Part shown: in pieces, positions 7,633 through 59,900 of the stretch | Layout: the number at the start of each line of letters is the position of its first letter | How positions within the stretch are numbered: position 1 is the stretch's first letter | Source: a bacterium | GTDB taxonomy: Bacteria; Patescibacteriota; Patescibacteriia; JAACEG01; JAGUWE01 | Assembly (NCBI GenBank): GCA_043798995.1 | Contig: JAZDOD010000011.1 | Location: 4,737-68,736, forward strand | Length of the DNA stretch: 64,000 bases | Direction of reading: 5' to 3' | Made by a program: the position numbers and the translations under genes | Notes under the pieces: model-generated | What the model was told of the DNA's origin: nothing | Databases searched by the model: none | Seen by the model: the letters and a program-made list of their open reading frames with translations, nothing else

Positions 7633-7680
7633 AATAAAATTAAAATTTTAAAGATAGTTTTGCCTTTTTCGTTGTTATTT

Positions 7681-7745
7681 TTCCGCCCGAGGCGTGCGCC
7701 CGAGGCCCATCCGCCTCTGGCGGAGATCCGCCTTTGGCGGAAACT
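7681..7745. repeat. 64-bp palindromic MITE-like repeat (family B: TTCCGCC...CCGCCTTTGGCGGAA), intergenic copy
   Basis: Near-identical to copies at 13117-13180 and (reverse-complement) 46184-46245; terminal inverted repeat TTCCGCC/GGCGGAA. Confidence 0.7.
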
Positions 7746-9141: not shown

Positions 9142-9239
9142 GTATATTTTGTTCCGGCTTCCGAACCAGAATCCAGAACCTTAAAAAAATTGATTCCCGT
9201 TTCCGCGAGAATGACACATATTTTTTAACAAAAGAAAAA

Positions 9240-11907: not shown

Positions 11908-11908
11908 T

Positions 11909-12075
11909 GTCATTGCGAGTCATGCCTTTGACAGGGTGTGGCAATCTCATACTTTTTTTGTCATCCTGAACGGAGTGAAGGATCTCACGGGAGGCCATAA
12001 GCCGACCCGTGTTTTTTTCGCGGGTCGCAAGCTCCCGCGAGATTCCTCGGGCTACACCCTCGGAATGACATTTAA
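11909..12075. repeat. Two adjacent MITE-like elements (TGTCATTGCGAG...GCAATCTC end, then a TGTCATCCTGA...GAATGACAT element with nested hairpins)
   Basis: First matches the left end of the GIY-YIG unit at 28841; second is paralogous to 17881-18025. Confidence 0.6.
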
Positions 12076-12756: not shown

Positions 12757-12852
12757 TGTCATTCCTGCGGAAGCAGGAATCCAGAGAAGTTATTTTATCA
12801 ACCAATCCTGACAAATTAAAATCTAGATTCCGCATCAAGTGCGGAATGACAT
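12757..12852. repeat. MITE-like element, family A (TIR GTCATTCC/GGAATGAC enclosing two palindromic hairpins)
   Basis: TGTCATTCCTGCGGAAGCAGGAATCCAGA ... GATTCCGCATCAAGTGCGGAATGACAT; same ends as the GIY-YIG unit at 19161-19542. Confidence 0.65.
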
Positions 12853-12878: not shown

Positions 12879-14021
12879 ATGAAAAGTAACACAAAAAAGA
12901 ACTTAAGTCAAGGCACAAACAATCGATATCATATTATCACCCATGGTTGTCAGATGAATGTTTCTGACAGCGAAAAAATCGTCGGTCTTTTGGAAAGGCA
13001 GGGTTATCAGAAAGCTAAAGATGCTAAATCGGCCAATTTAGTAGTAATTAATGTTTGTTCGGTGCGCCAGTCGGCGATGGACCGCGTTTATAGTAAAATA
13101 AAAGAATTACGAATTTCCGCCCGAGGCGTGCGCCAGAGGTCCATCCGCCTTTGGCGGAGATCCGCCTTTGGCGGAAAGAATTTAAAATTATTCCCTGAGC
13201 AAAGTCGAAGGGTAAGAATAATTTTAGCGGGATGCCTTTTAGAGACAGATAAAAAGAAATTAAAAGATAAAGTTGATGAGATTTGGTATCCTGACAAATA
13301 TTTTAGCATGGCTTCTTGCCGTGAAAATAAAAATTTAGCTTACGTGCCGATTATGACGGGGTGTAATAATTTTTGCGCCTATTGCGTCGTGCCGTATACC
13401 AGAGGTAGGGAAAAATCAAGATCAGCGTTAGAGATTATTAAGGAAGTAAAAAGATTAATTAAAAGTGGCTATAAAGAAATTGTGTTGATAGGGCAGAATG
13501 TTAATAGCTATTCATGTAACATGGAACATGAAACCTGTAACACAATTAATTTTCCAAAATTATTGAAAATTATCAATGATTTGCCGGGTGATTTTTGGTT
13601 GCGATTTATGACGAGTCATCCTAAGGATATGTCGGATGAACTGATTGAGGCGGTGGCAAAATGCGGGAAAGTCAAAAAAGAAATTCACCTGCCAATCCAA
13701 AGCGGCGATGACGAAATTTTAAAAAAAATGAATCGTGGCTACACTGTGAAAAAATATAAAAATTTAATTAAAAAAATCCGTCAAAAAATACCCGGCGTTA
13801 AAATTTCTACTGACGTGATTGTCGGTTTTCCCGGCGAAACAAAAAAACAATTTCAAAATACAGCCAAGCTTTTCCGCCAAATTAAATTTAACAAGGCCTA
13901 CATTGCCAAATATTCTCCTCGTCATGGCACGGCTGCGGCTAAGCTCAAAGATGATGTTTCACCGCAGGAAAAGAAAAGACGCTGGCAGATTTTAGAAAAA
14001 ATAGCTAATCAAAAGAAATAA
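12879..14021 (+). CDS. miaB: tRNA methylthiotransferase (MiaB/RimO radical-SAM MTTase family) carrying an in-frame repeat insertion
   Basis: MTTase N-domain HGCQMNVSDSE, radical SAM CNNFCAYCVVPYTRG, TRAM region; in-frame foreign peptide from the repeat at 13117-13180. Confidence 0.85.
   Translation: MKSNTKKNLSQGTNNRYHIITHGCQMNVSDSEKIVGLLERQGYQKAKDAKSANLVVINVCSVRQSAMDRVYSKIKELRISARGVRQRSIRLWRRSAFGGKNLKLFPEQSRRVRIILAGCLLETDKKKLKDKVDEIWYPDKYFSMASCRENKNLAYVPIMTGCNNFCAYCVVPYTRGREKSRSALEIIKEVKRLIKSGYKEIVLIGQNVNSYSCNMEHETCNTINFPKLLKIINDLPGDFWLRFMTSHPKDMSDELIEAVAKCGKVKKEIHLPIQSGDDEILKKMNRGYTVKKYKNLIKKIRQKIPGVKISTDVIVGFPGETKKQFQNTAKLFRQIKFNKAYIAKYSPRHGTAAAKLKDDVSPQEKKRRWQILEKIANQKK
13117..13180. repeat. 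Family-B 64-bp palindromic repeat inserted in frame within miaB
   Basis: Near-identical to 7681-7745; encodes SARGVRQRSIRLWRRSAFGGK without stop codons. Confidence 0.7.
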
Positions 14022-14029
14022 ATAAAAAT

Positions 14030-15058
14030 ATGTCAACTCTTTCACTTAAACCACCAAAAATTATCGCTGTTTTAGGAACAACCGCTTCGGGCAAAACCAA
14101 GCTGGCAGTTAGATTAGCTTATCTGTTTAATGGTGAGATTGTCTCAGCTGACAGCCGACAGGTTTATCAAGGTATGGATATCGGGACAGGGAAAGATCTT
14201 GACGATTATATCATCAAAGTCAAAAGTCCCATGCCTACCGGCCCGCTTCGCCGTAGCTTCAGCGAGGCGAGCAGGCAGGAAAAGTCAAAAGTCAAAATTT
14301 TTGAAATTCCATATTATTTAATTGATGTGGTAAGCCCCAAAAAGCAGTTTAATCTGGCGGATTATCAACGTTTGGCTTATCAGGCAATTGATAAAATTTT
14401 AAAAAAAGGCAAACTGCCAATCTTAGCCGGCGGCAGCGGACTCTACCTTCAGGCCGCGGTTGATGGCTGGCTTTTATCAAAAGCAAGACCAGACAGAAAA
14501 TTACGCCAAGAATTAGAAAAGAAGAAAACGAGCTGGCTTTTTTCTTTTTTAAAGAAACTGGATAAAGATTTTGCTAAAAAAGTCAGTCAAAGTGATCAAA
14601 AAAATAAAAGGCGACTGATTAGATATATTGAAATAAAATTAGTCGAGACAAAGAGATTGCCACACTCCTTTCAATCGCTCGCAATGACAGGAGGTGGATA
14701 TGATACCTTACTTCTCGGCCTTACTTATCCCAAAGAAACTTTAAACCAAAGAATTGATAAAAGACTGGAGGAGCGGCTTGAACAAGGTCTGATTGAAGAA
14801 GTTAAAAGATTGCGTCAACAAGGTTTAAACTGGCAGCGTTTAGAGCAATTCGGCCTGGAGTATAAATTTGTGGCTTATTATCTGCAGGGCAAATTAGATT
14901 ATGAAGAAATGGCAGAAAAATTAAAAACAGCAATTCAGCAATTTGCTAAAAGGCAACTTACTTGGTTTCGGCGCTGGCAGAAAATGGGGGCTAAAATTCA
15001 TTGGATAAAAAGTGAAAATGAGGCCAAAAAATTGATTAAAAAATTTTTAAAAAGATAA
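14030..15058 (+). CDS. miaA: tRNA dimethylallyltransferase
   Basis: P-loop GTTASGKT, SADSRQVYQGMDIGT, LAGGSGLY; ~25 extra residues from repeat at 14226-14285. Confidence 0.9.
   Translation: MSTLSLKPPKIIAVLGTTASGKTKLAVRLAYLFNGEIVSADSRQVYQGMDIGTGKDLDDYIIKVKSPMPTGPLRRSFSEASRQEKSKVKIFEIPYYLIDVVSPKKQFNLADYQRLAYQAIDKILKKGKLPILAGGSGLYLQAAVDGWLLSKARPDRKLRQELEKKKTSWLFSFLKKLDKDFAKKVSQSDQKNKRRLIRYIEIKLVETKRLPHSFQSLAMTGGGYDTLLLGLTYPKETLNQRIDKRLEERLEQGLIEEVKRLRQQGLNWQRLEQFGLEYKFVAYYLQGKLDYEEMAEKLKTAIQQFAKRQLTWFRRWQKMGAKIHWIKSENEAKKLIKKFLKR
14226..14285. repeat. Palindromic repeat (family E) inserted in frame in miaA
   Basis: GGCCCGCTTCGCCGTAGCTTCAGCGAGGCGAGCAGGCAGG is the reverse complement of the repeat at 39950-40010; flanked by AAAGTCAAAAGTC direct repeats. 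Confidence 0.5.
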
Positions 15059-17880: not shown

Positions 17881-18025
17881 AGTGCTGTCATCCTGAGGAC
17901 GCCTTTGGCGGCCGAAGGATCTCACGGGAGGAGCGAAGCGACGACCCGTGTTCGCGGGTCGCTCATTCCGCTACACTTTATTCGCTCCCGCGAGATTCTT
18001 CACTTCGTTCAGAATGACATAATAA
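17881..18025. repeat. MITE-like element with nested hairpins (TGTCATCCTGA ... TTCAGAATGACAT), family D
   Basis: Paralogous to 11960-12075 (shared GAAGGATCTCACGGGAGG, CGCGGGTCGC, CTCCCGCGAGATTC). Confidence 0.6.
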
Positions 18026-19160: not shown

Positions 19161-19542
19161 TGTCATTCCTGCGGAAGCAGGAATCCAGACGATTAAAGAT
19201 CATAATACAGATCTTGCCAGTTAGGATTTGATTTTTCAATTAATTCTAATTTCCATTTTCTCTTCCATTTTTTTAATCTTTTTTCACCCTCGATAGCACT
19301 TTCTATACTAGCCGTTTCTTCGTAATAAACTAAATTATGGATTTTATACTTTTTCGTAAAACCGGAAATTAAATCGTTTTTATGTTCGTAAATCCTCTTT
19401 TTTAAATTTGATGTCACTCCGATATATAGAGTACCATTTCTTTTACTTGCCAAGATATAAACGTAATAAGATTTCATTGTTTTCTGGATCCCGCATCCCG
19501 CCTGCATTAAAATTACGGCGGGCAGGCAAGTGCGGGATGACA
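19161..19542. mobile_element. ~382-bp GIY-YIG-encoding unit bounded by inverted hairpin ends (TGTCATTCCTGCGGAAGCAGGAATCCAGA ... TCTGGATCCCGCAT...GTGCGGGATGACAT)
   Basis: Both ends occur fused, without the gene, as the 61-bp MITE at 55868-55928. Confidence 0.6.
19193..19477 (-). CDS. GIY-YIG nuclease family small protein
   Basis: MKSYYVYILASKRNGTLYIGVTSNLKKRIYEH...; the first 22 codons of the listed ORF lie in the right hairpin end, so start moved to M23. Confidence 0.8.
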   Translation of the reverse strand: MKSYYVYILASKRNGTLYIGVTSNLKKRIYEHKNDLISGFTKKYKIHNLVYYEETASIESAIEGEKRLKKWKRKWKLELIEKSNPNWQDLYYDL

Positions 19543-19596
19543 TAGGGAGAATTAGTGTGGAATGACAAAATAAATATTGTTAGGATGACAGAAAAT

Positions 19597-28840: not shown

Positions 28841-29230
28841 TGTCATTGCGATCCGCCAGCTGGCGGAGAAGCAATCTCTTCCTTAATTTATGAAACACAA
28901 AAAATACTATGTCTATATAATGACTAATAAAACTAACTCCACGCTTTATAGCGGTGTAACAAATAATCTTAAAGAGAGAGTCTATCAACATAAAGGCAAA
29001 TTAATCGAAGGATTTACTAAAAAGTATAACATTAATAAATTAGTTTATTATGAGGAGTTTAACAATGCTTACGATGCAATCGCTCGAGAGAAACAAATTA
29101 AAGCGGGTTCAAGGAAAAAGAAAATTGAACTAATTGAGAAAGAAAATAAAAATTGGAAGAATTTAAGCGAAGATTGGTAAAGTGAGATTGCCGCGTCGTC
29201 CTGCCTGCGGCGGGACTCCTCGCAATGACA
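28841..29230. mobile_element. ~390-bp GIY-YIG-encoding unit with symmetric ends (TGTCATTGCGA-hairpin-GCAATCTC ... GAGATTGC-hairpin-TCGCAATGACA)
   Basis: 11-bp TIR TGTCATTGCGA/TCGCAATGACA plus inner inverted pair GCAATCTC/GAGATTGC; isolated ends at 11909 and 50748. Confidence 0.6.
28890..29180 (+). CDS. GIY-YIG nuclease family small protein
   Basis: YYVYIMTNKTNSTLYSGVTNNLKERVYQHK; paralog of 19193-19477. Confidence 0.8.
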   Translation: MKHKKYYVYIMTNKTNSTLYSGVTNNLKERVYQHKGKLIEGFTKKYNINKLVYYEEFNNAYDAIAREKQIKAGSRKKKIELIEKENKNWKNLSEDW

Positions 29231-34364: not shown

Positions 34365-34449
34365 ATTTTGGAAGGGTCGCATTGCGCCTCTTCGGCGCAT
34401 TTATGCGCCAAGTTGGCGCATCCGCCGTTGAGGCGGAAGTGGAAAATAT

Positions 34450-34710
34450 ATGTATTATTTTTATGTTTTACAATTTAAGAATAATAAAAAATTATATAAA
34501 GGAATTACAAATAATTTAAGAAAAAGAATAACAGATCATCGTTCTGGTCAGTCAAAATTTACTTCACGAAACGGCGATTTTAATTTAATTTTTTATGAAG
34601 CGTATTTAGATAAAAGAGATGCCATAGAGGCGGAAAGATATTTTAAGAGCGGTCACGGCAGAGAAGTATTGAGGCAAAAATTAAAATATTATTTTGGAAG
34701 GGTCGCATAG
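34450..34710 (+). CDS. GIY-YIG nuclease family small protein; C-terminus overlaps tRNA-Ser
   Basis: MYYFYVLQFKNNKKLYKGITNNLRKRITDH; stop codon TAG at 34708-34710 inside the tRNA. Confidence 0.8.
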   Translation: MYYFYVLQFKNNKKLYKGITNNLRKRITDHRSGQSKFTSRNGDFNLIFYEAYLDKRDAIEAERYFKSGHGREVLRQKLKYYFGRVA

Positions 34711-34780
34711 TGGTCTAGTGCGCCTGCTTGGAGAGCAGGTATGCCGCAAGGCATCGCGAGTTCAAATCTCGCCCCTTCCG
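34696..34780 (+). tRNA. tRNA-Ser (anticodon GGA)
   Basis: Hand-folded: acceptor GGAAGGG/CCCTTCC, 3-bp D stem, anticodon stem CCTGC/GCAGG loop TTGGAGA, long variable arm ATGCC-GCAA-GGCAT, T-loop TTCAAAT, discriminator G. Confidence 0.85.
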
Positions 34781-34848
34781 TTTGAGTTTTTTGCGGCAAA
34801 AATTATCAAAGCACTTGGCGTTTCTATTGAGGAGTTAATAAAATAACT

Positions 34849-39547: not shown

Positions 39548-39680
39548 CCCCACTTAGTGGGGTCATCCCGAGTGCAGCTCCGTCTAACGGAGCGAAGTCG
39601 AGGGATCCCGTTTAATGAAATAAGAGATCCTCGCGTCGTCCCGCCTTTGGCGGGACTCCTCAGGATGACAAGAAAGTAAT

Positions 39681-39865: not shown

Positions 39866-40045
39866 ATTTTCCTTTGTCTTTCAGGGCTTATTAAAATGTC
39901 ATACTGAACTCGTTTCAGTATCTCACAGAGAATTCAAAAAGAGATCCCAAAACCCGCCTGCTCGCCTCGCTGAAGCTTATGACGAAGCGGGCCAACGAGG
40001 CAGGCAAATTCGGGACGACAACTTAAGAATAAGGAATAATAAGCC

Positions 40046-46142: not shown

Positions 46143-48095
46143 ATGACAGCTAAAGAAGTCCGCGAAAAATTTTTAGATTTTTTTTCCGCCAAAGGCGGAT
46201 CTCCGCCAAAGGCGGATGGACCTCTGGCGCACGCCTCGGGCGGAAAAGGTCATACCATTATCCCTTCGGCGCCGCTTGTTCCAGAAAACGATCCAACGGT
46301 GCTTTTTACTACGGCCGGTATGCATCCTTTGGTGCCTTATCTTCTGGGCGAAGACCATCCGGGTGGGAAAAGGGTGGCCAATGTTCAGATTTGCCTAAGA
46401 ACCGATGATATTGAAGAAATCGGCGACAATCGGCATTTGACTTTTTTTGAAATGCTGGGCAATTGGAGTTTCGGAGACTATTTTAAGCGCGAGGCGATTG
46501 AGTGGAGTTTTGAATTATTAACCTCTAAGGATAAAGGTTTTGCTTTGGATCCGAAACGATTATACGTCACAGTTTTTGGCGGCGTTAAAGAATTAGGTTT
46601 AGAGCGAGACGAAAAGTCAATTAAAATCTGGCAAGAAGTTTTTGCCAAAGCTGGTTTAAAAGCTGAAGTTGCCGACGAAGGTAATATTTGGAAAAATAAA
46701 AATATAAGAATTTTTCCTTTGGGCATGAAAGATAATTTTTGGGGACCGGTTGGAGAGATTGGTCCTTGCGGTCCTTGCACCGAAATGTATTATGATCTCC
46801 ACCCAAAAAAAAAACACAGCAAAGTATCATTTGATGATTTGATTGATCAGTTTAGATTTTTGGAAATTTGGAATGATGTTTTTATGGAATTTAATAAACT
46901 GTCCGATGATAAATATGAATTGTTAAAGCAAAAAAACGTTGATACGGGTATGGGCGTGGAACGAATGTTAGCCGTCTTAAATAATAAAGAGAATATTTTT
47001 GACATAGAACTTTTTAGCGCAGTTTTTGAAAGTATAAAAAAATTGTCGGATAAAAATTATAATAATTGTCAAAAGGAATTTAGAATTATAGCCGACCACT
47101 TAAAAGCCGCGGTTTTTATCTTGGCGGAAAACATTGAACCGTCTAACGTTGATCGCGGCTATGTGCTTCGCCGTCTTATTCGCCGGGCCATTCGTTGCGG
47201 CAAACAAATCGGCATTAAAACTCCTTTCACCCATAAAATCGCCGAAGTTATCATTAATCTTTATCAAGATCCGTATTTGCATCTAAAGAAAAATCAGGAT
47301 TTTATTATTGAGCAACTGGTCAGAGAAGAAGAAAAGTTTGGCGAAACCCTGGAAAAAGGTTTAAAACAATTTAAATTTTTAATCAGGCGTAAATTAATAA
47401 TTACTCCCGTTGAACCGGGATCGCCAACCACCGATATAAAAGATAAAATGAAAATTACTGGCAGAGAAGCGTTTGATTTATATCAGACCTACGGTTTCCC
47501 CTTAGAGTTAATAAAAGAATTGGCAAGAGAAAATAGATTTACAGTTGATGAAGATGGTTTTAATGAGGAAATGAAACACCATCAAGAGCTTTCGCGCACT
47601 GCCGCGGCCGGTATGTTCAAGGGCGGTCTTTCAGACCATTCGGAAATTGCTACCCGCTATCATACGGCCACGCATTTGCTTTTGGCGAGCTTACGGAAAG
47701 TTTTGGGCGAACACGTTTTTCAGCGCGGCTCAAATATTACGGCCGAAAGATTGCGTTTTGATTTTTCCCATTCGGAAAAGTTGACGCCCGAGCAGATTAA
47801 ACAGGTTGAAGATTTGGTTAATCAAAAAATTCAAGAAGGTCTGCCGGTCAAGGTTGAAGAAATGACGGTTAACGAAGCCAAAGCCCAAGGCGCTATCGGC
47901 GTTTTTGAGCAAAAATACGGCGAGCGAGTTAAGGTTTATACGATTGGCCTCTCGACAAGCTCGGGGTCTATTTTCAGTCAGGAAATTTGCGGCGGACCGC
48001 ATATTAAAAATACCCGACAGCTTGGTAAATTTAAGATTATTAGAGAAGAGGCTAGCTCTGCTGGTGTAAGGAGAATAAAAGCGGTATTGGAGTGA
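46143..48095 (+). CDS. alaS: Alanine--tRNA ligase (short form lacking C-terminal domain) with in-frame repeat insertion
   Basis: FLDFFSAKG...HTIIPSAPLVPENDPTVLFTTAGM, editing-domain HTATHLL, CGGPH; 650 aa. Confidence 0.9.
   Translation: MTAKEVREKFLDFFSAKGGSPPKADGPLAHASGGKGHTIIPSAPLVPENDPTVLFTTAGMHPLVPYLLGEDHPGGKRVANVQICLRTDDIEEIGDNRHLTFFEMLGNWSFGDYFKREAIEWSFELLTSKDKGFALDPKRLYVTVFGGVKELGLERDEKSIKIWQEVFAKAGLKAEVADEGNIWKNKNIRIFPLGMKDNFWGPVGEIGPCGPCTEMYYDLHPKKKHSKVSFDDLIDQFRFLEIWNDVFMEFNKLSDDKYELLKQKNVDTGMGVERMLAVLNNKENIFDIELFSAVFESIKKLSDKNYNNCQKEFRIIADHLKAAVFILAENIEPSNVDRGYVLRRLIRRAIRCGKQIGIKTPFTHKIAEVIINLYQDPYLHLKKNQDFIIEQLVREEEKFGETLEKGLKQFKFLIRRKLIITPVEPGSPTTDIKDKMKITGREAFDLYQTYGFPLELIKELARENRFTVDEDGFNEEMKHHQELSRTAAAGMFKGGLSDHSEIATRYHTATHLLLASLRKVLGEHVFQRGSNITAERLRFDFSHSEKLTPEQIKQVEDLVNQKIQEGLPVKVEEMTVNEAKAQGAIGVFEQKYGERVKVYTIGLSTSSGSIFSQEICGGPHIKNTRQLGKFKIIREEASSAGVRRIKAVLE
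46184..46245. repeat. Family-B 64-bp palindromic repeat (reverse orientation) in frame within alaS codons ~15-35
   Basis: Reverse complement matches 13117-13180; encodes GSPPKADGPLAHASGGKG between conserved FFSAKG and HTII. Confidence 0.7.
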
Positions 48096-48122: not shown

Positions 48123-48191
48123 TGCGGGATCGTTTCTAACGGCCCGCCAAAGGCGGGTAAATAAGACAGCGGCCGGCGCTTGTCCCGCACA
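48123..48191 (+). other. tRNA-Gln-like remnant (acceptor arms retained, interior replaced by hairpins)
   Basis: Begins TGCGGGATCGT and ends GTCCCGCA like tRNA-Gln at 48549; interior CCCGCCAAAGGCGGG. Confidence 0.35.
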
Positions 48192-48196
48192 AAACT

Positions 48197-48230
48197 GGGG
48201 GGTCGTCTAATGGTAGGACACCAGCCTTTT
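48197..48230 (+). other. Diverged duplicate of tRNA-Gln 5-prime half, ending in the anticodon loop
   Basis: GGGGGGTCGTCTAATGGTAGGACACCAGCCTTTT vs TGCGGGATCGTCTAATGGTAGGACCGCGGCCTTTG. Confidence 0.45.
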
Positions 48231-48306
48231 CCGCCGGAGGCGGACTCGCCTTTTCCGCCAAAGGCGGATCTGCCTTGGGCATGAGGCGAGGAAGCCGAAA
48301 ATAAAA

Positions 48307-48645
48307 ATGTATTACACTTATATATTAAAAAGCAAAAAAGACGGAATTCGTTATGTTGGTAGCGGTGAAGATGTATTAGAAAGATTACGTCGGCATAATA
48401 AAGGTGACCATCAATTTACAAAAGGGCACCGACCTTGGGAATTAATTTATCAAGAAAAATATAGCACAAGATCAGAAGCTATGAGGCGTGAAAAATTTTT
48501 AAAATCAGGTCAAGGAAGAAAAATTTTAGATGAGGTTCTCGGCAAGGCTGCGGGATCGTCTAATGGTAGGACCGCGGCCTTTGAAGCCGTTAATCATGGT
48601 TCGAATCCATGTCCCGCAGCCTTGCCGAGAAATAGTAAAGAGTAG
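48307..48645 (+). CDS. GIY-YIG nuclease family small protein; reading frame runs through tRNA-Gln
   Basis: MYYTYILKSKKDGIRYVGSGEDVLERLRRHNKG; last ~30 codons overlap the tRNA, true C-terminus uncertain. Confidence 0.7.
   Translation: MYYTYILKSKKDGIRYVGSGEDVLERLRRHNKGDHQFTKGHRPWELIYQEKYSTRSEAMRREKFLKSGQGRKILDEVLGKAAGSSNGRTAAFEAVNHGSNPCPAALPRNSKE
48549..48619 (+). tRNA. tRNA-Gln (anticodon TTG)
   Basis: Hand-folded: acceptor TGCGGGA/TCCCGCA with U1-A72, D stem GTCT/GGAC, anticodon stem GCGGC/GCCGT loop CTTTGAA, T stem CATGG/CCATG loop TTCGAAT, discriminator G. Confidence 0.85.
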
Positions 48646-48720
48646 GAGAGACGGCCTTTTCCACTGGGGGCGGACTTGCTTGTCCCGCCTTGGCGGGGCG
48701 GCCTCCTTGCCCCGCTATAG

Positions 48721-48760
48721 GCGGGGTGAAGAGCCGTTAATCATGGCCCGCCCCGCACCA
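48721..48760 (+). other. tRNA-Gln 3-prime-half-like fragment ending in CCA
   Basis: TGAAGAGCCGTTAATCATGG matches the tRNA from anticodon loop through T stem, then CCCGCCCCGCACCA. Confidence 0.35.
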
Positions 48761-50490: not shown

Positions 50491-50674
50491 TATTTGTCTA
50501 AATTTTAAGTTCAATAATATATGTTATTCCTGTGAAAACAGGAATCCAGACCATTGAACCGGAATCTAGAGCTCGGATCAAGTCCGAGGTGACAATAAGG
50601 AATTTTGGTGGCGGGGTAAATACAGTCTAAATTTTCAATCCTGCCAAGGCGGGAGAAAAAATTTAGACAAATAA
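50489..50674. repeat. ~186-bp element bounded by perfect 18-bp inverted repeats TTTATTTGTCTAAATTTT, containing MITE hairpins
   Basis: Left IR 50489-50506, right IR 50657-50674; same end sequence after T-runs at 59758 and 60150. Confidence 0.5.
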
Positions 50675-54624: not shown

Positions 54625-54667
54625 CTTGATAATTCATTGTTGTCTTGCCGCAGAGTTGCCTTCGTCT

Positions 54668-54790
54668 GTCATTCCCGCGGAAGCGGGAATCCAGACGCCG
54701 TTCCTGCGAAAGCAGGGAGCCAGGGGATGTGGATTCCCGTTTTCACGGGAATGACAAAAAAAGAAAAAGTGCGGGATGACAAATAGAACG
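54668..54790. repeat. Compound MITE-like hairpin repeats (family A variants)
   Basis: TGTCATTCCCGCGGAAGCGGGAATCCAGA ... GGATTCCCGTTTTCACGGGAATGACA ... GTGCGGGATGACA. Confidence 0.6.
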
Positions 54791-55855: not shown

Positions 55856-55867
55856 AACAAATCTGTC

Positions 55868-55960
55868 ATTTTGACTTCTTCTCTTTGTCATTCCTGCGGA
55901 AGCAGGAATCCAGAGCTGGATCCCGCATCAAGTGCGGGATGACATAGATGAGGCACAGGA
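55868..55960. repeat. MITE: fused left and right ends of the GIY-YIG unit (gene deleted) plus extra hairpin
   Basis: TGTCATTCCTGCGGAAGCAGGAATCCAGAGCTGGATCCCGCATCAAGTGCGGGATGACAT. Confidence 0.7.
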
Positions 55961-55992
55961 ATGACAAAGAGAATATAAAATAAATTATAGAT

Positions 55993-56550: not shown

Positions 56551-56700
56551 TTTTTACCCTGTCATTCCGGACTCCCTTCTGTCATTCCTGCGAAACTTGT
56601 CCTCGAGAAATCGGGGAGCAGGAATCCAGGAGAATTGATATGGTTCCCCGTTTTCACGGGGACGGAGTCTGGATCCCGTATCTAGTACGGGATGACAAAG
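56551..56700. repeat. Cluster of MITE-like hairpin repeats (family A variants)
   Basis: GTCATTCCGG..., TGTCATTCCTGCGAAAC...GCAGGAATCCAGG, GGTTCCCCGTTTTCACGGGGACGG, GGATCCCGTATCTAGTACGGGATGACA. Confidence 0.6.
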
Positions 56701-59391: not shown

Positions 59392-59460
59392 TTCTCTTTG
59401 TCATCCCGCACTTGATGCGGGATCCAGCTCTGGATTCCTGGTCAAGCCAGGAATGACAGA
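59392..59460. repeat. MITE (reverse orientation of the fused-end element, variant hairpin)
   Basis: TGTCATCCCGCACTTGATGCGGGATCCAGCTCTGGATTCCTGGTCAAGCCAGGAATGACAGA. Confidence 0.65.
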
Positions 59461-59757: not shown

Positions 59758-59900
59758 TTATTTGTTTAAATTTTCGATTCCATTAATATATGTCATTCCT
59801 GTGAAAACAGGAATCCAGAGCTGGATCCCGCATCTACCGCCTTTGGCGGGACAAGCAAGTGCGGGATGACAATAAGAGAAATTCAGGATGACATTGAAAA
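59758..59900. repeat. Compound repeat: TTTGTTTATTTGTTTAAATTTT end plus family-A MITE hairpins
   Basis: Shares terminus with 50489 and 60150; contains ATTCCTGTGAAAACAGGAAT and CCGCCTTTGGCGGG. Confidence 0.55.

Follow-up and report, generated by a model that had tools for sequence, protein, structure and literature searches.

The closest described relative of the locus reported here is the Ssn nuclease system, which is recent and little known outside Neisseria. The SsnA protein of Neisseria meningitidis (NMV_0044/NMB0047) has 94 aa and a single GIY-YIG domain, and it belongs to CDD family cd10448 (Chenal et al. 2025, Nat Commun 16:2388). It binds a hairpin motif only as single-stranded DNA (ssDNA), by sequence and structure together, and cuts the motif strand a few nucleotides 5' of a GTC; it has no action on the complementary strand, duplex DNA or RNA, and it tolerates loop extensions in the motif (Chenal et al. 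2025). The Neisseria motif is the Neisseria Transformation Sequence (NTS), with the consensus CGTCATTCCCGCGMAVGCGGGAATCYRG, and the cognate repeats of Ssn nucleases are called Ssn-related motifs (SRMs). Four homologues were assayed for ssDNA cleavage, Wolbachia SsnA among those tested; 71% of homologues have a motif nearby and 42% are flanked on both sides. SsnA reduces transformation of N. meningitidis by NTS-bearing DNA, and the NTS-ssnA-NTS arrangement was noted as insertion-sequence-like (Chenal et al. 2025). Patescibacteria go unmentioned in that study. Here we describe a GIY-YIG gene, ssnA-1, lying between inverted hairpin repeats in a 64-kb stretch of a patescibacterial genome (contig JAZDOD010000011.1; hereafter the window). 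The locus is very probably an Ssn nuclease gene inside its cognate SRM repeats, belonging to the published SsnA family, and the window shows a reduced genome of the candidate phyla radiation (CPR) type holding two such nuclease/motif pairs.

A probable Ssn nuclease gene inside its repeats

The ssnA-1 open reading frame (ORF) spans 19193-19477 on the minus strand, from an ATG at 19477-19475 to a TAA at 19195-19193. A first-pass annotation of the window had these coordinates, the strand and the GIY-YIG family right, but gave 95 aa for a protein of 94 aa. Residues 4-77 match Pfam GIY-YIG (PF01541, E=2e-16) and the whole protein is single-domain, the domain search having found no second domain or added DNA-binding domain beside GIY-YIG. 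The blocks YYVYIL, LYIGVT, KRIYEH and GEKRLK are kept in an alignment with homologues from 8 phyla, in which the GIY and YIG tyrosines, an Arg and a Glu are conserved. From this alignment we infer that the catalytic residues are equivalent, position by position, to Y6, Y17 and E64 of the N. meningitidis enzyme.

Fit to the SsnA family was judged for N. meningitidis SsnA by its published description, while identity was measured against the Wolbachia homologue (62%). Homologues number at least 7991, a very large family, and their conservation is striking, at 70-80% identity across phyla; those at that level come from CPR groups, Dehalococcoidia, Planctomycetes, Verrucomicrobia, Omnitrophota, Proteobacteria (including Wolbachia) and Bacteroidota. 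A search of PDB by sequence returned no SsnA structure, its sole matches being more distant UPF0213 proteins (E~1e-3). The NCBIfam model grpIintron_endo scored SsnA-1 at 22 bits against a cut-off of 56, and PADLOC gave no defence-system match, only marginal partial ones.

As first annotated, ssnA-1 and the hairpin-bearing inverted repeats on either side of it form one unit. Copy a, 3' of ssnA-1, lies on the plus strand at 19161-19189 (TGTCATTCCTGCGGAAGCAGGAATCCAGA); its parts are T-GTC-ATTCCTGC-GGAA-GCAGGAAT-CCAGA, and as ssDNA it folds into a hairpin. Copy b, 5' of the gene at 19483-19543, runs forward on the minus strand (plus-strand reading TCTGGATCCCGCA...TGCGGGATGACAT) and is composed of T-GTC-ATCCCGCA-loop-TGCGGGAT-CCAGA, with a 30-nt nested hairpin at 19497-19526 inside the loop; its ssDNA fold has an energy of -15.1 kcal/mol (z=-3.7). 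Only 6 nt and 3 nt of non-coding DNA separate the ORF from its two SRMs. Both copies follow a layout that we call type A: GTC, an 8-bp stem starting from ATTCC or ATCCC, a 4-5-nt loop, the complementary arm and C-CAG, about 28 nt in all. The outer TGTCAT/ATGACA and inner ATCCAGA/TCTGGAT pairs that had been taken for the inverted ends of the unit are present, but they are merely the borders of two inverted copies of this motif.

The window motif reads TGTCATTCCTGCGGAAGCAGGAATCCAG. Copy a matches the NTS consensus at 24/28 positions, and of the 4 differences, 2 compensate each other as a C>T/G>A pair in the stem. The oriented GTC 5' of the palindrome and the C directly 3' of it, by which an NTS or SRM is recognized, are both in place, and the nested loop hairpins are consistent with the loop extensions that SsnA tolerates. 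Weighing against the assignment, the TCCTGC-stem variant flanking ssnA-1 escapes the published SRM pattern, so that the motif is a variant. That pattern (HGTCWYN(0-2)YYVSBRHN(0-5)WNVSBRGN(0-2)RNCYNB) recovers 4 of the ~18 motifs in the window and misses those at ssnA-1, because it does not admit T:A pairs in stems; SRM counts made with it for genomes of AT-rich lineages are too low. Our scan instead used a structural grammar controlled by shuffles, and SRM counts for the source genome refer to the 64-kb window. The architecture, which the first-pass annotation had thought undescribed, is not novel: the locus is an example of a system already published for the Ssn nuclease and its SRMs (Chenal et al. 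2025, Nat Commun 16:2388).

Repeat copies across the window

The structural scan and a census of TGTCAT together place ~18 SRMs in the 64 kb, nearly all as convergent pairs. Allowing <=3 mismatches, 5 copies of the 27-nt left motif are present where 0.00 would be expected. One of the nine type-A doublets encloses a gene (19161-19543). A gene-less doublet with the arm types of the ssnA-1 unit lies at 55886-55945, rather than at 55868-55928 as first annotated, and it had been described as exactly the two ends of the unit joined. This is true of its left arm (29/29), while the right arm lacks the 30-nt nested hairpin. As ssDNA, either strand of this doublet folds into a four-way junction (-19.6 kcal/mol, z=-6.2). 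The doublet at 59399-59458 is inverted relative to it and 98% complementary over 46 nt; that at 59791-59871 carries a nested loop hairpin in its second arm, as in 19483-19543; and that at 12757-12851 has a 36-nt spacer and a left arm 29/29 identical to 19161-19189. Two more are associated with pilus genes, one with a third hairpin in its spacer between pilC-like and pilin-like genes (54667-54756) and one with nested hairpins between pilin-like genes (56580-56697). A degenerate doublet (TGTTAT..., ...GGTGACA) occupies 50522-50595, and at 9149-9217 the left arm is degenerate and the right arm intact.

Three gene-less doublets, including that at 55886-55945, share the junction CCAGAGCTGG, which implies that gene-less doublets were multiplied as such. 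Arm variants and spacers are mixed in them in mosaic fashion, as in the units of bacterial interspersed mosaic elements (BIMEs) or the paired repetitive extragenic palindromic (REP) sequences known as REPINs. The proposal that they are miniature inverted-repeat transposable elements (MITEs) made by internal deletion is accordingly one reading of several. Rfam at gathering thresholds reports two tRNAs and nothing else over the whole window, so the repeats match no known RNA family. A cloverleaf-like role of the doublet, as a tRNA mimic or RNA element, was rejected on that ground and because SsnA does not bind RNA.

Just outside the ssnA-1 unit, at 19555-19590 on the minus strand, are two truncated SRM 5' half-sites (TGTCATTCCACAC and TGTCATCCTAAC) in the orientation of copy b. 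Half-sites of this kind (TGTCATYCC followed by a few more nt but lacking the 3' arm) recur in the window at 54770-54781, 55864-55873, 55954-55966, 56560-56572 and 59882-59893, and at loci L016, L017, L020, L056 and L065 of other genomes. They lie 13-24 nt upstream of intact SRMs in the same orientation, with C/T-rich DNA between; across loci these distance bins hold 23 cases versus ~6 expected. The half-sites may be scars of a copying process. Between 53416 and 58096, a pilC/GspF-like gene and a run of three genes whose N-termini are of prepilin type (GFTLIEMLV, GFTMIELLI) have SRM doublets in the spacers between them, a parallel to Neisseria, where NTS are clustered near surface and pilus genes.

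A second unit and the pairing of protein and motif

A phmmer search found four GIY-YIG ORFs in the window. One of them belongs to a second unit of the same architecture on the plus strand at 28841-29230, composed of an SRM at 28841-28878, ssnA-2 at 28890-29180 and an inverted SRM at 29184-29230. The ssnA-2 product has 96 aa and is 59% identical to that of ssnA-1. Its motif, type B, reads GTC-ATTGC...GCAAT-CTC, with a C-TC border. Gene-less type-B doublets lie at 11959-12071 (within the type-B stretch 11908-12071), 17886-18020 and 39563-39672, and further type-B sites at 14654-14690 and 39897-39925.

Motif type varies with the protein. All six proteins with an SRKKK motif near residue 70, from 3 genomes and including ssnA-2, have ATTGC-type SRMs on both sides, while the 47 KxWxRxWK proteins for which both flanks were scored have ATTCC/ATCCC (ATYCY)-type SRMs. 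This pairing predicts that stem identity is read by the protein region near residue 70, a testable guess at the specificity determinant and one relevant to programmable ssDNA cutters.

Generality of the arrangement and selection on the hairpin

The flanks of 90 homologous ORFs, in 80 genome loci from many phyla, were surveyed for motifs within 200 nt. Convergent SRMs stand on both sides of 50 of the 90 ORFs, compared with 9 of 1422 positions placed at random in these loci, and 75 have an SRM on at least one side. Median distances are 21 nt from SRM to ATG and 6 nt from stop codon to SRM. By a strict grammar, contigs with ssnA carry 10.2 SRMs per 100 kb, gene surroundings excluded, versus 1.1 in control contigs selected via DHFR; the window carries 20. 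The link between repeats and the GIY-YIG gene that the first-pass annotation relied on therefore stands. It had named two observations that would speak against it, homologues in place without flanking hairpins and a common REP family independent of GIY-YIG copy number; what we find is that the repeats track the gene and that flanking on both sides is general.

Covariation was assessed in 37 distinct motifs picked solely by the unpaired anchors GTCAT-N16-ATCCAG. Pairing holds in 98.6% of their stem cells, and double changes affect five pairs, amounting to 41 double-change cells against 8.2 in shuffles (0/500). As far as such comparison of sequences can tell, the SRM hairpin is under selection, because compensatory stem changes exceed those in shuffles. 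The GC-rich stem-loops, intergenic in an AT-rich genome, have some resemblance to ordinary intrinsic terminators or chance palindromes beside a small gene, yet this is extremely improbable, being contradicted by the motif counts with their chance expectation of 0.00, by the flank survey with the same motif beside homologues in many phyla, and by the stem covariation, while terminators make no use of the conserved GTC and C-CAG borders, no T-run follows and SsnA does not bind RNA.

Comparative evidence for mobility

The ssnA-1 unit lies between thyA and folA, which are adjacent in most relatives with a spacer usually of 0-20 nt. Three states of this spacer were found: empty (15 nt) at locus L082, occupied by a gene-less doublet at L081, and occupied by a doublet plus ssnA-1 in the window. 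DHFR identity to the window is 66% for L082 and 70% for L081, the closest relative. The L081 doublet is oriented as in the window; its first SRM is identical to the window's except for the 30-nt loop insert, which is absent, and its second matches the window's at 25/28 positions with one compensatory pair. The search for empty sites in related genomes that had been suggested thus yielded both an empty and a gene-less state at the orthologous locus. In the more distant relatives L157 (855-960) and L144 (2900-3005), the thyA-folA spacer contains a type-B doublet (GTCATTGCGAGGCACGAAGCAATC...), so this spacer has been colonized more than once.

Boundaries of recent copies are also informative. Locus L008 holds two gene copies that are 100% identical and 4.4 kb apart, with identity confined to the stretch from TCTCTGTCAT through GGAATGACA, and one Staskawiczbacteria genome has at least four copies likewise bounded at the outer SRM ends. 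Because identity stops at these ends, the unit of duplication is motif-gene-motif. We know of no earlier comparative evidence for mobility of SRM-ssnA-SRM before this three-state site and these sharp boundaries, and our literature search found no follow-up proving or disproving it. Judged from these comparisons, the SRM-ssnA-SRM unit is genuine and insertion-sequence (IS)-like, and it is probably mobile; the thyA-folA spacer offers a clean natural test case for the question. Essentially no relatives of ssnA-1 were found in viral contigs (4 weak partial matches), so phages are not an obvious vector.

Several points limit this case. The target-site duplications that had been anticipated are absent, with no direct repeat abutting TGTCAT...ATGACA at any copy and with 5' flanks that are C/T-rich. 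The gene-bearing type-A unit is single-copy in the window. In the three-state comparison, the proteins flanking the spacer are 66-70% identical between genomes, so that separate insertions are possible, and the gene may have been either gained or lost at the doublet.

Proposed mechanism and competing explanations

By analogy with the Neisseria enzyme, SsnA-1 would cut at the outer ends of the unit, immediately left of 19161 on the plus strand and immediately right of 19543 on the minus strand. On either strand the nick would fall at the unit's 5' boundary, and likewise at every gene-less doublet. Our preferred guess is that the unit spreads by nick-initiated copying dependent on replication or recombination, and gene conversion among doublets might carry the gene in or out. 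By analogy with Neisseria, the likely effect on the cell is trimming of ssDNA as it is taken up or recombined. We think it unlikely that SsnA alone performs cut-and-paste transposition, because each doublet offers one cleavable orientation per strand and because GIY-YIG chemistry is purely hydrolytic. To our knowledge, GIY-YIG enzymes hydrolyse DNA, with no covalent intermediate, strand-transfer or rejoining step known.

The explanation that survives best beside such spreading is one in which nothing moves: a domesticated chromosomal system that, as has been proposed in Neisseria, shapes recombination or the processing of incoming ssDNA, its flanking SRMs being relics or autoregulatory. The lowered transformation of N. 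meningitidis by NTS-containing DNA, the doublets between type IV pilus and pilin-like genes at 54.6-56.7 kb, which recall Neisseria NTS clusters at surface-protein genes, the selection on hairpins read from compensatory stem changes and the near absence of homologues from viral contigs all favor it. However, the identical copies 4.4 kb apart at L008 and the four or more Staskawiczbacteria copies indicate recent duplication, and neither presence and absence at an orthologous site nor proteins 70-80% identical across phyla agree with a purely resident function. We regard domestication as possible, but tentatively so.

The boldest reading would make SRM-ssnA-SRM an active autonomous ssDNA element of a new mechanistic class, with a GIY-YIG nickase as its sole enzyme and the doublets as non-autonomous derivatives, invading intergenic sites and crossing phyla. 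It would then be the GIY-YIG counterpart of REPIN and its partner, the REP-associated tyrosine transposase (RAYT). The idea goes back to a suggestion of Chenal et al. (2025), and we consider it rather doubtful.

To the same extent doubtful is an autonomous DNA transposon, in which the nuclease, its only protein, acts as transposase on hairpin terminal inverted repeats (TIRs) and the doublets are internally deleted MITEs mobilized in trans, an idea also raised by Chenal et al. (2025, Nat Commun 16:2388). Copy boundaries that are sharp at the outer SRM ends (L008, Staskawiczbacteria) suit such a transposon, as do empty and filled orthologous sites, the one junction in three gene-less copies with the multiplication that it implies, and near-identical proteins in distant phyla, which suggest horizontal spread. 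It is set against the hydrolytic chemistry noted above and the lack of target-site duplication. Since SsnA spares the reverse strand of the motif, there would be one cut per strand, unlike the two same-strand cuts of IS200/IS605, and the doublets, mosaic in arms and spacers, did not arise from the resident copy of the gene by simple deletion.

Unlikely, in our estimate, is a homing process in which the doublets form an independent REP/REPIN-like family, a selfish ssnA targets them, and repair of the nick from a gene-bearing doublet copies the gene in. Arms at the gene identical to those of gene-less doublets would provide 28-29 nt of homology on each side, the ORF nearly fills the doublet (6 nt + 3 nt non-coding), the orthologous site at L081 is a doublet without the gene, and GIY-YIG homing endonucleases are the classical precedent. 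Yet homing leaves the arrival of doublets at new sites unexplained (L082 is empty), it would be inefficient with a gene in one of nine type-A doublets per 64 kb, 28 nt is short for recombinational repair, and SsnA lacks a separate DNA-binding domain and leaves duplex DNA uncut. We retain nick-initiated copying as the favored, if conjectural, route by which the unit spreads.

GIY-YIG genes at tRNA loci and other repeats

The other two GIY-YIG ORFs of the window, GIY-YIG #3 and #4, adjoin tRNA genes. GIY-YIG #4 (48307-~48555, in a region spanning 48123-48760) is UPF0213/YhbQ-like and 32% identical to ssnA-1, and its ~164 close homologues are nearly all from Patescibacteria. It lies directly 5' of tRNA-Gln (48549-48621), as do ORFs of its clade in 6/6 independent long contigs with differing neighbors (L166-L171). 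The window and five of these loci share an order in which tRNA-Gln nt 1-34 are followed by a ~30-nt two-hairpin insert in the anticodon loop, nt 35-45 and then the GIY-YIG #4 ORF. In three loci the intact tRNA-Gln is in turn succeeded by a matching 3' half with the same insert, of which the window has a degenerate version (48691-48757). The intact tRNA-Gln stands within an extended stem of 10-11 bp, CTCGGCAAGGC / GCCTTGCCGAG. By its arrangement, GIY-YIG #4 looks like a cassette that interrupts a tRNA-Gln gene while bringing a substitute copy of it. We found no description of a GIY-YIG/tRNA-Gln cassette, and a 2026 paper on tRNA introns in Patescibacteria mentions neither Gln nor GIY-YIG.

GC-rich mini-hairpins, often CCGCC-N4-GGCGG, are recurrently inserted in the loops of other hairpins, both in the window (19497-19526, 59836-59858 and 56592-56617) and in the tRNA-like halves of L166, L168 and L169. 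Their hosts include the loops of SRMs and, in the tRNA-Gln pseudo-halves, the D, anticodon and T loops. This recurrence suggests an insertion process aimed at single-stranded loops.

GIY-YIG #3 (34450-34710) ends 15 nt inside tRNA-Ser(GGA) (34696-34781). A 13-nt direct repeat of the tRNA-Ser 5' end, GGAAGGGTCGCAT, begins at 34371 and is followed by three GC hairpins. One relative, on IMG/VR contig L161, is flanked on each side by a 40-nt copy of a tRNA 3' half, and another (L043, 5860-6290) is 100 nt downstream of tRNA-Leu.

A separate multi-hairpin repeat of 65-67 nt (TTTCCGCC...GGCGGAAA) occurs at 46180-46246 inside alaS (46143-48095), with copies 95-99% identical at 7679-7743 and 13114-13180. 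In alaS it is in frame near the N-terminus, adding ~20 residues (SAKGGSPPKADGPLAHASGG) between the conserved FLDFF and KGHT, which is reminiscent of Rickettsia palindromic elements.

Comparison with known systems

The SRM/ssnA pair works like a REPIN/RAYT pair without being a member of that group. As in the REP/REPIN-RAYT (TnpA_REP) systems and BIMEs, short hairpin repeats form inverted intergenic doublets, the doublet is the apparent replicating unit, and a single small nuclease gene is flanked by its own repeats and encodes an enzyme that recognizes an ssDNA hairpin. The protein here is a GIY-YIG nuclease and not an HUH/Y1 transposase, so there is no tyrosine-linked intermediate for rejoining, and ssnA is multi-copy in some genomes.

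Elements of the IS200/IS605 group are likewise very compact, have subterminal hairpins recognized as ssDNA and leave no target-site duplication. However, their end hairpins are both on one strand and they lack terminal inverted repeats, whereas the motifs here are inverted, with one cleavable site per strand, and the enzyme is of another class. Bacterial MITEs such as the Correia/NEMIS elements of Neisseria resemble the doublets in being short, TIR-bounded, non-coding, multi-copy and intergenic, but classical ones derive from insertion sequences with DDE transposases and have target-site duplications, neither of which is seen here.

With the GIY-YIG homing endonucleases (I-TevI, I-BmoI and the Seg proteins), SsnA-1 shares its catalytic domain and possibly the selfish logic of repair from the gene-bearing allele. 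It differs in having no linker or DNA-binding domain, in a gene that lies outside introns and phages, and in the target of SsnA, a structured, single-stranded motif in multiple copies instead of one unique site in duplex DNA.

Closest of all is the Ssn/NTS system of Neisseria, in comparison with which the locus is known from sequence alone. In both, a single-domain GIY-YIG protein of ~94 aa goes with a motif of the form GTC-ATTCC-stem/loop-GGAAT-C(C/T)(A/G)G, inverted copies of which flank the gene while many more are intergenic, and protein and motif variants co-vary. The window differs in its CPR-like host, in the TCCTGC/GCAGGA stem variant outside the published pattern, in motifs that occur almost only as convergent doublets, frequently with nested loop hairpins, and in having two paralogue/motif pairs within one 64-kb stretch.

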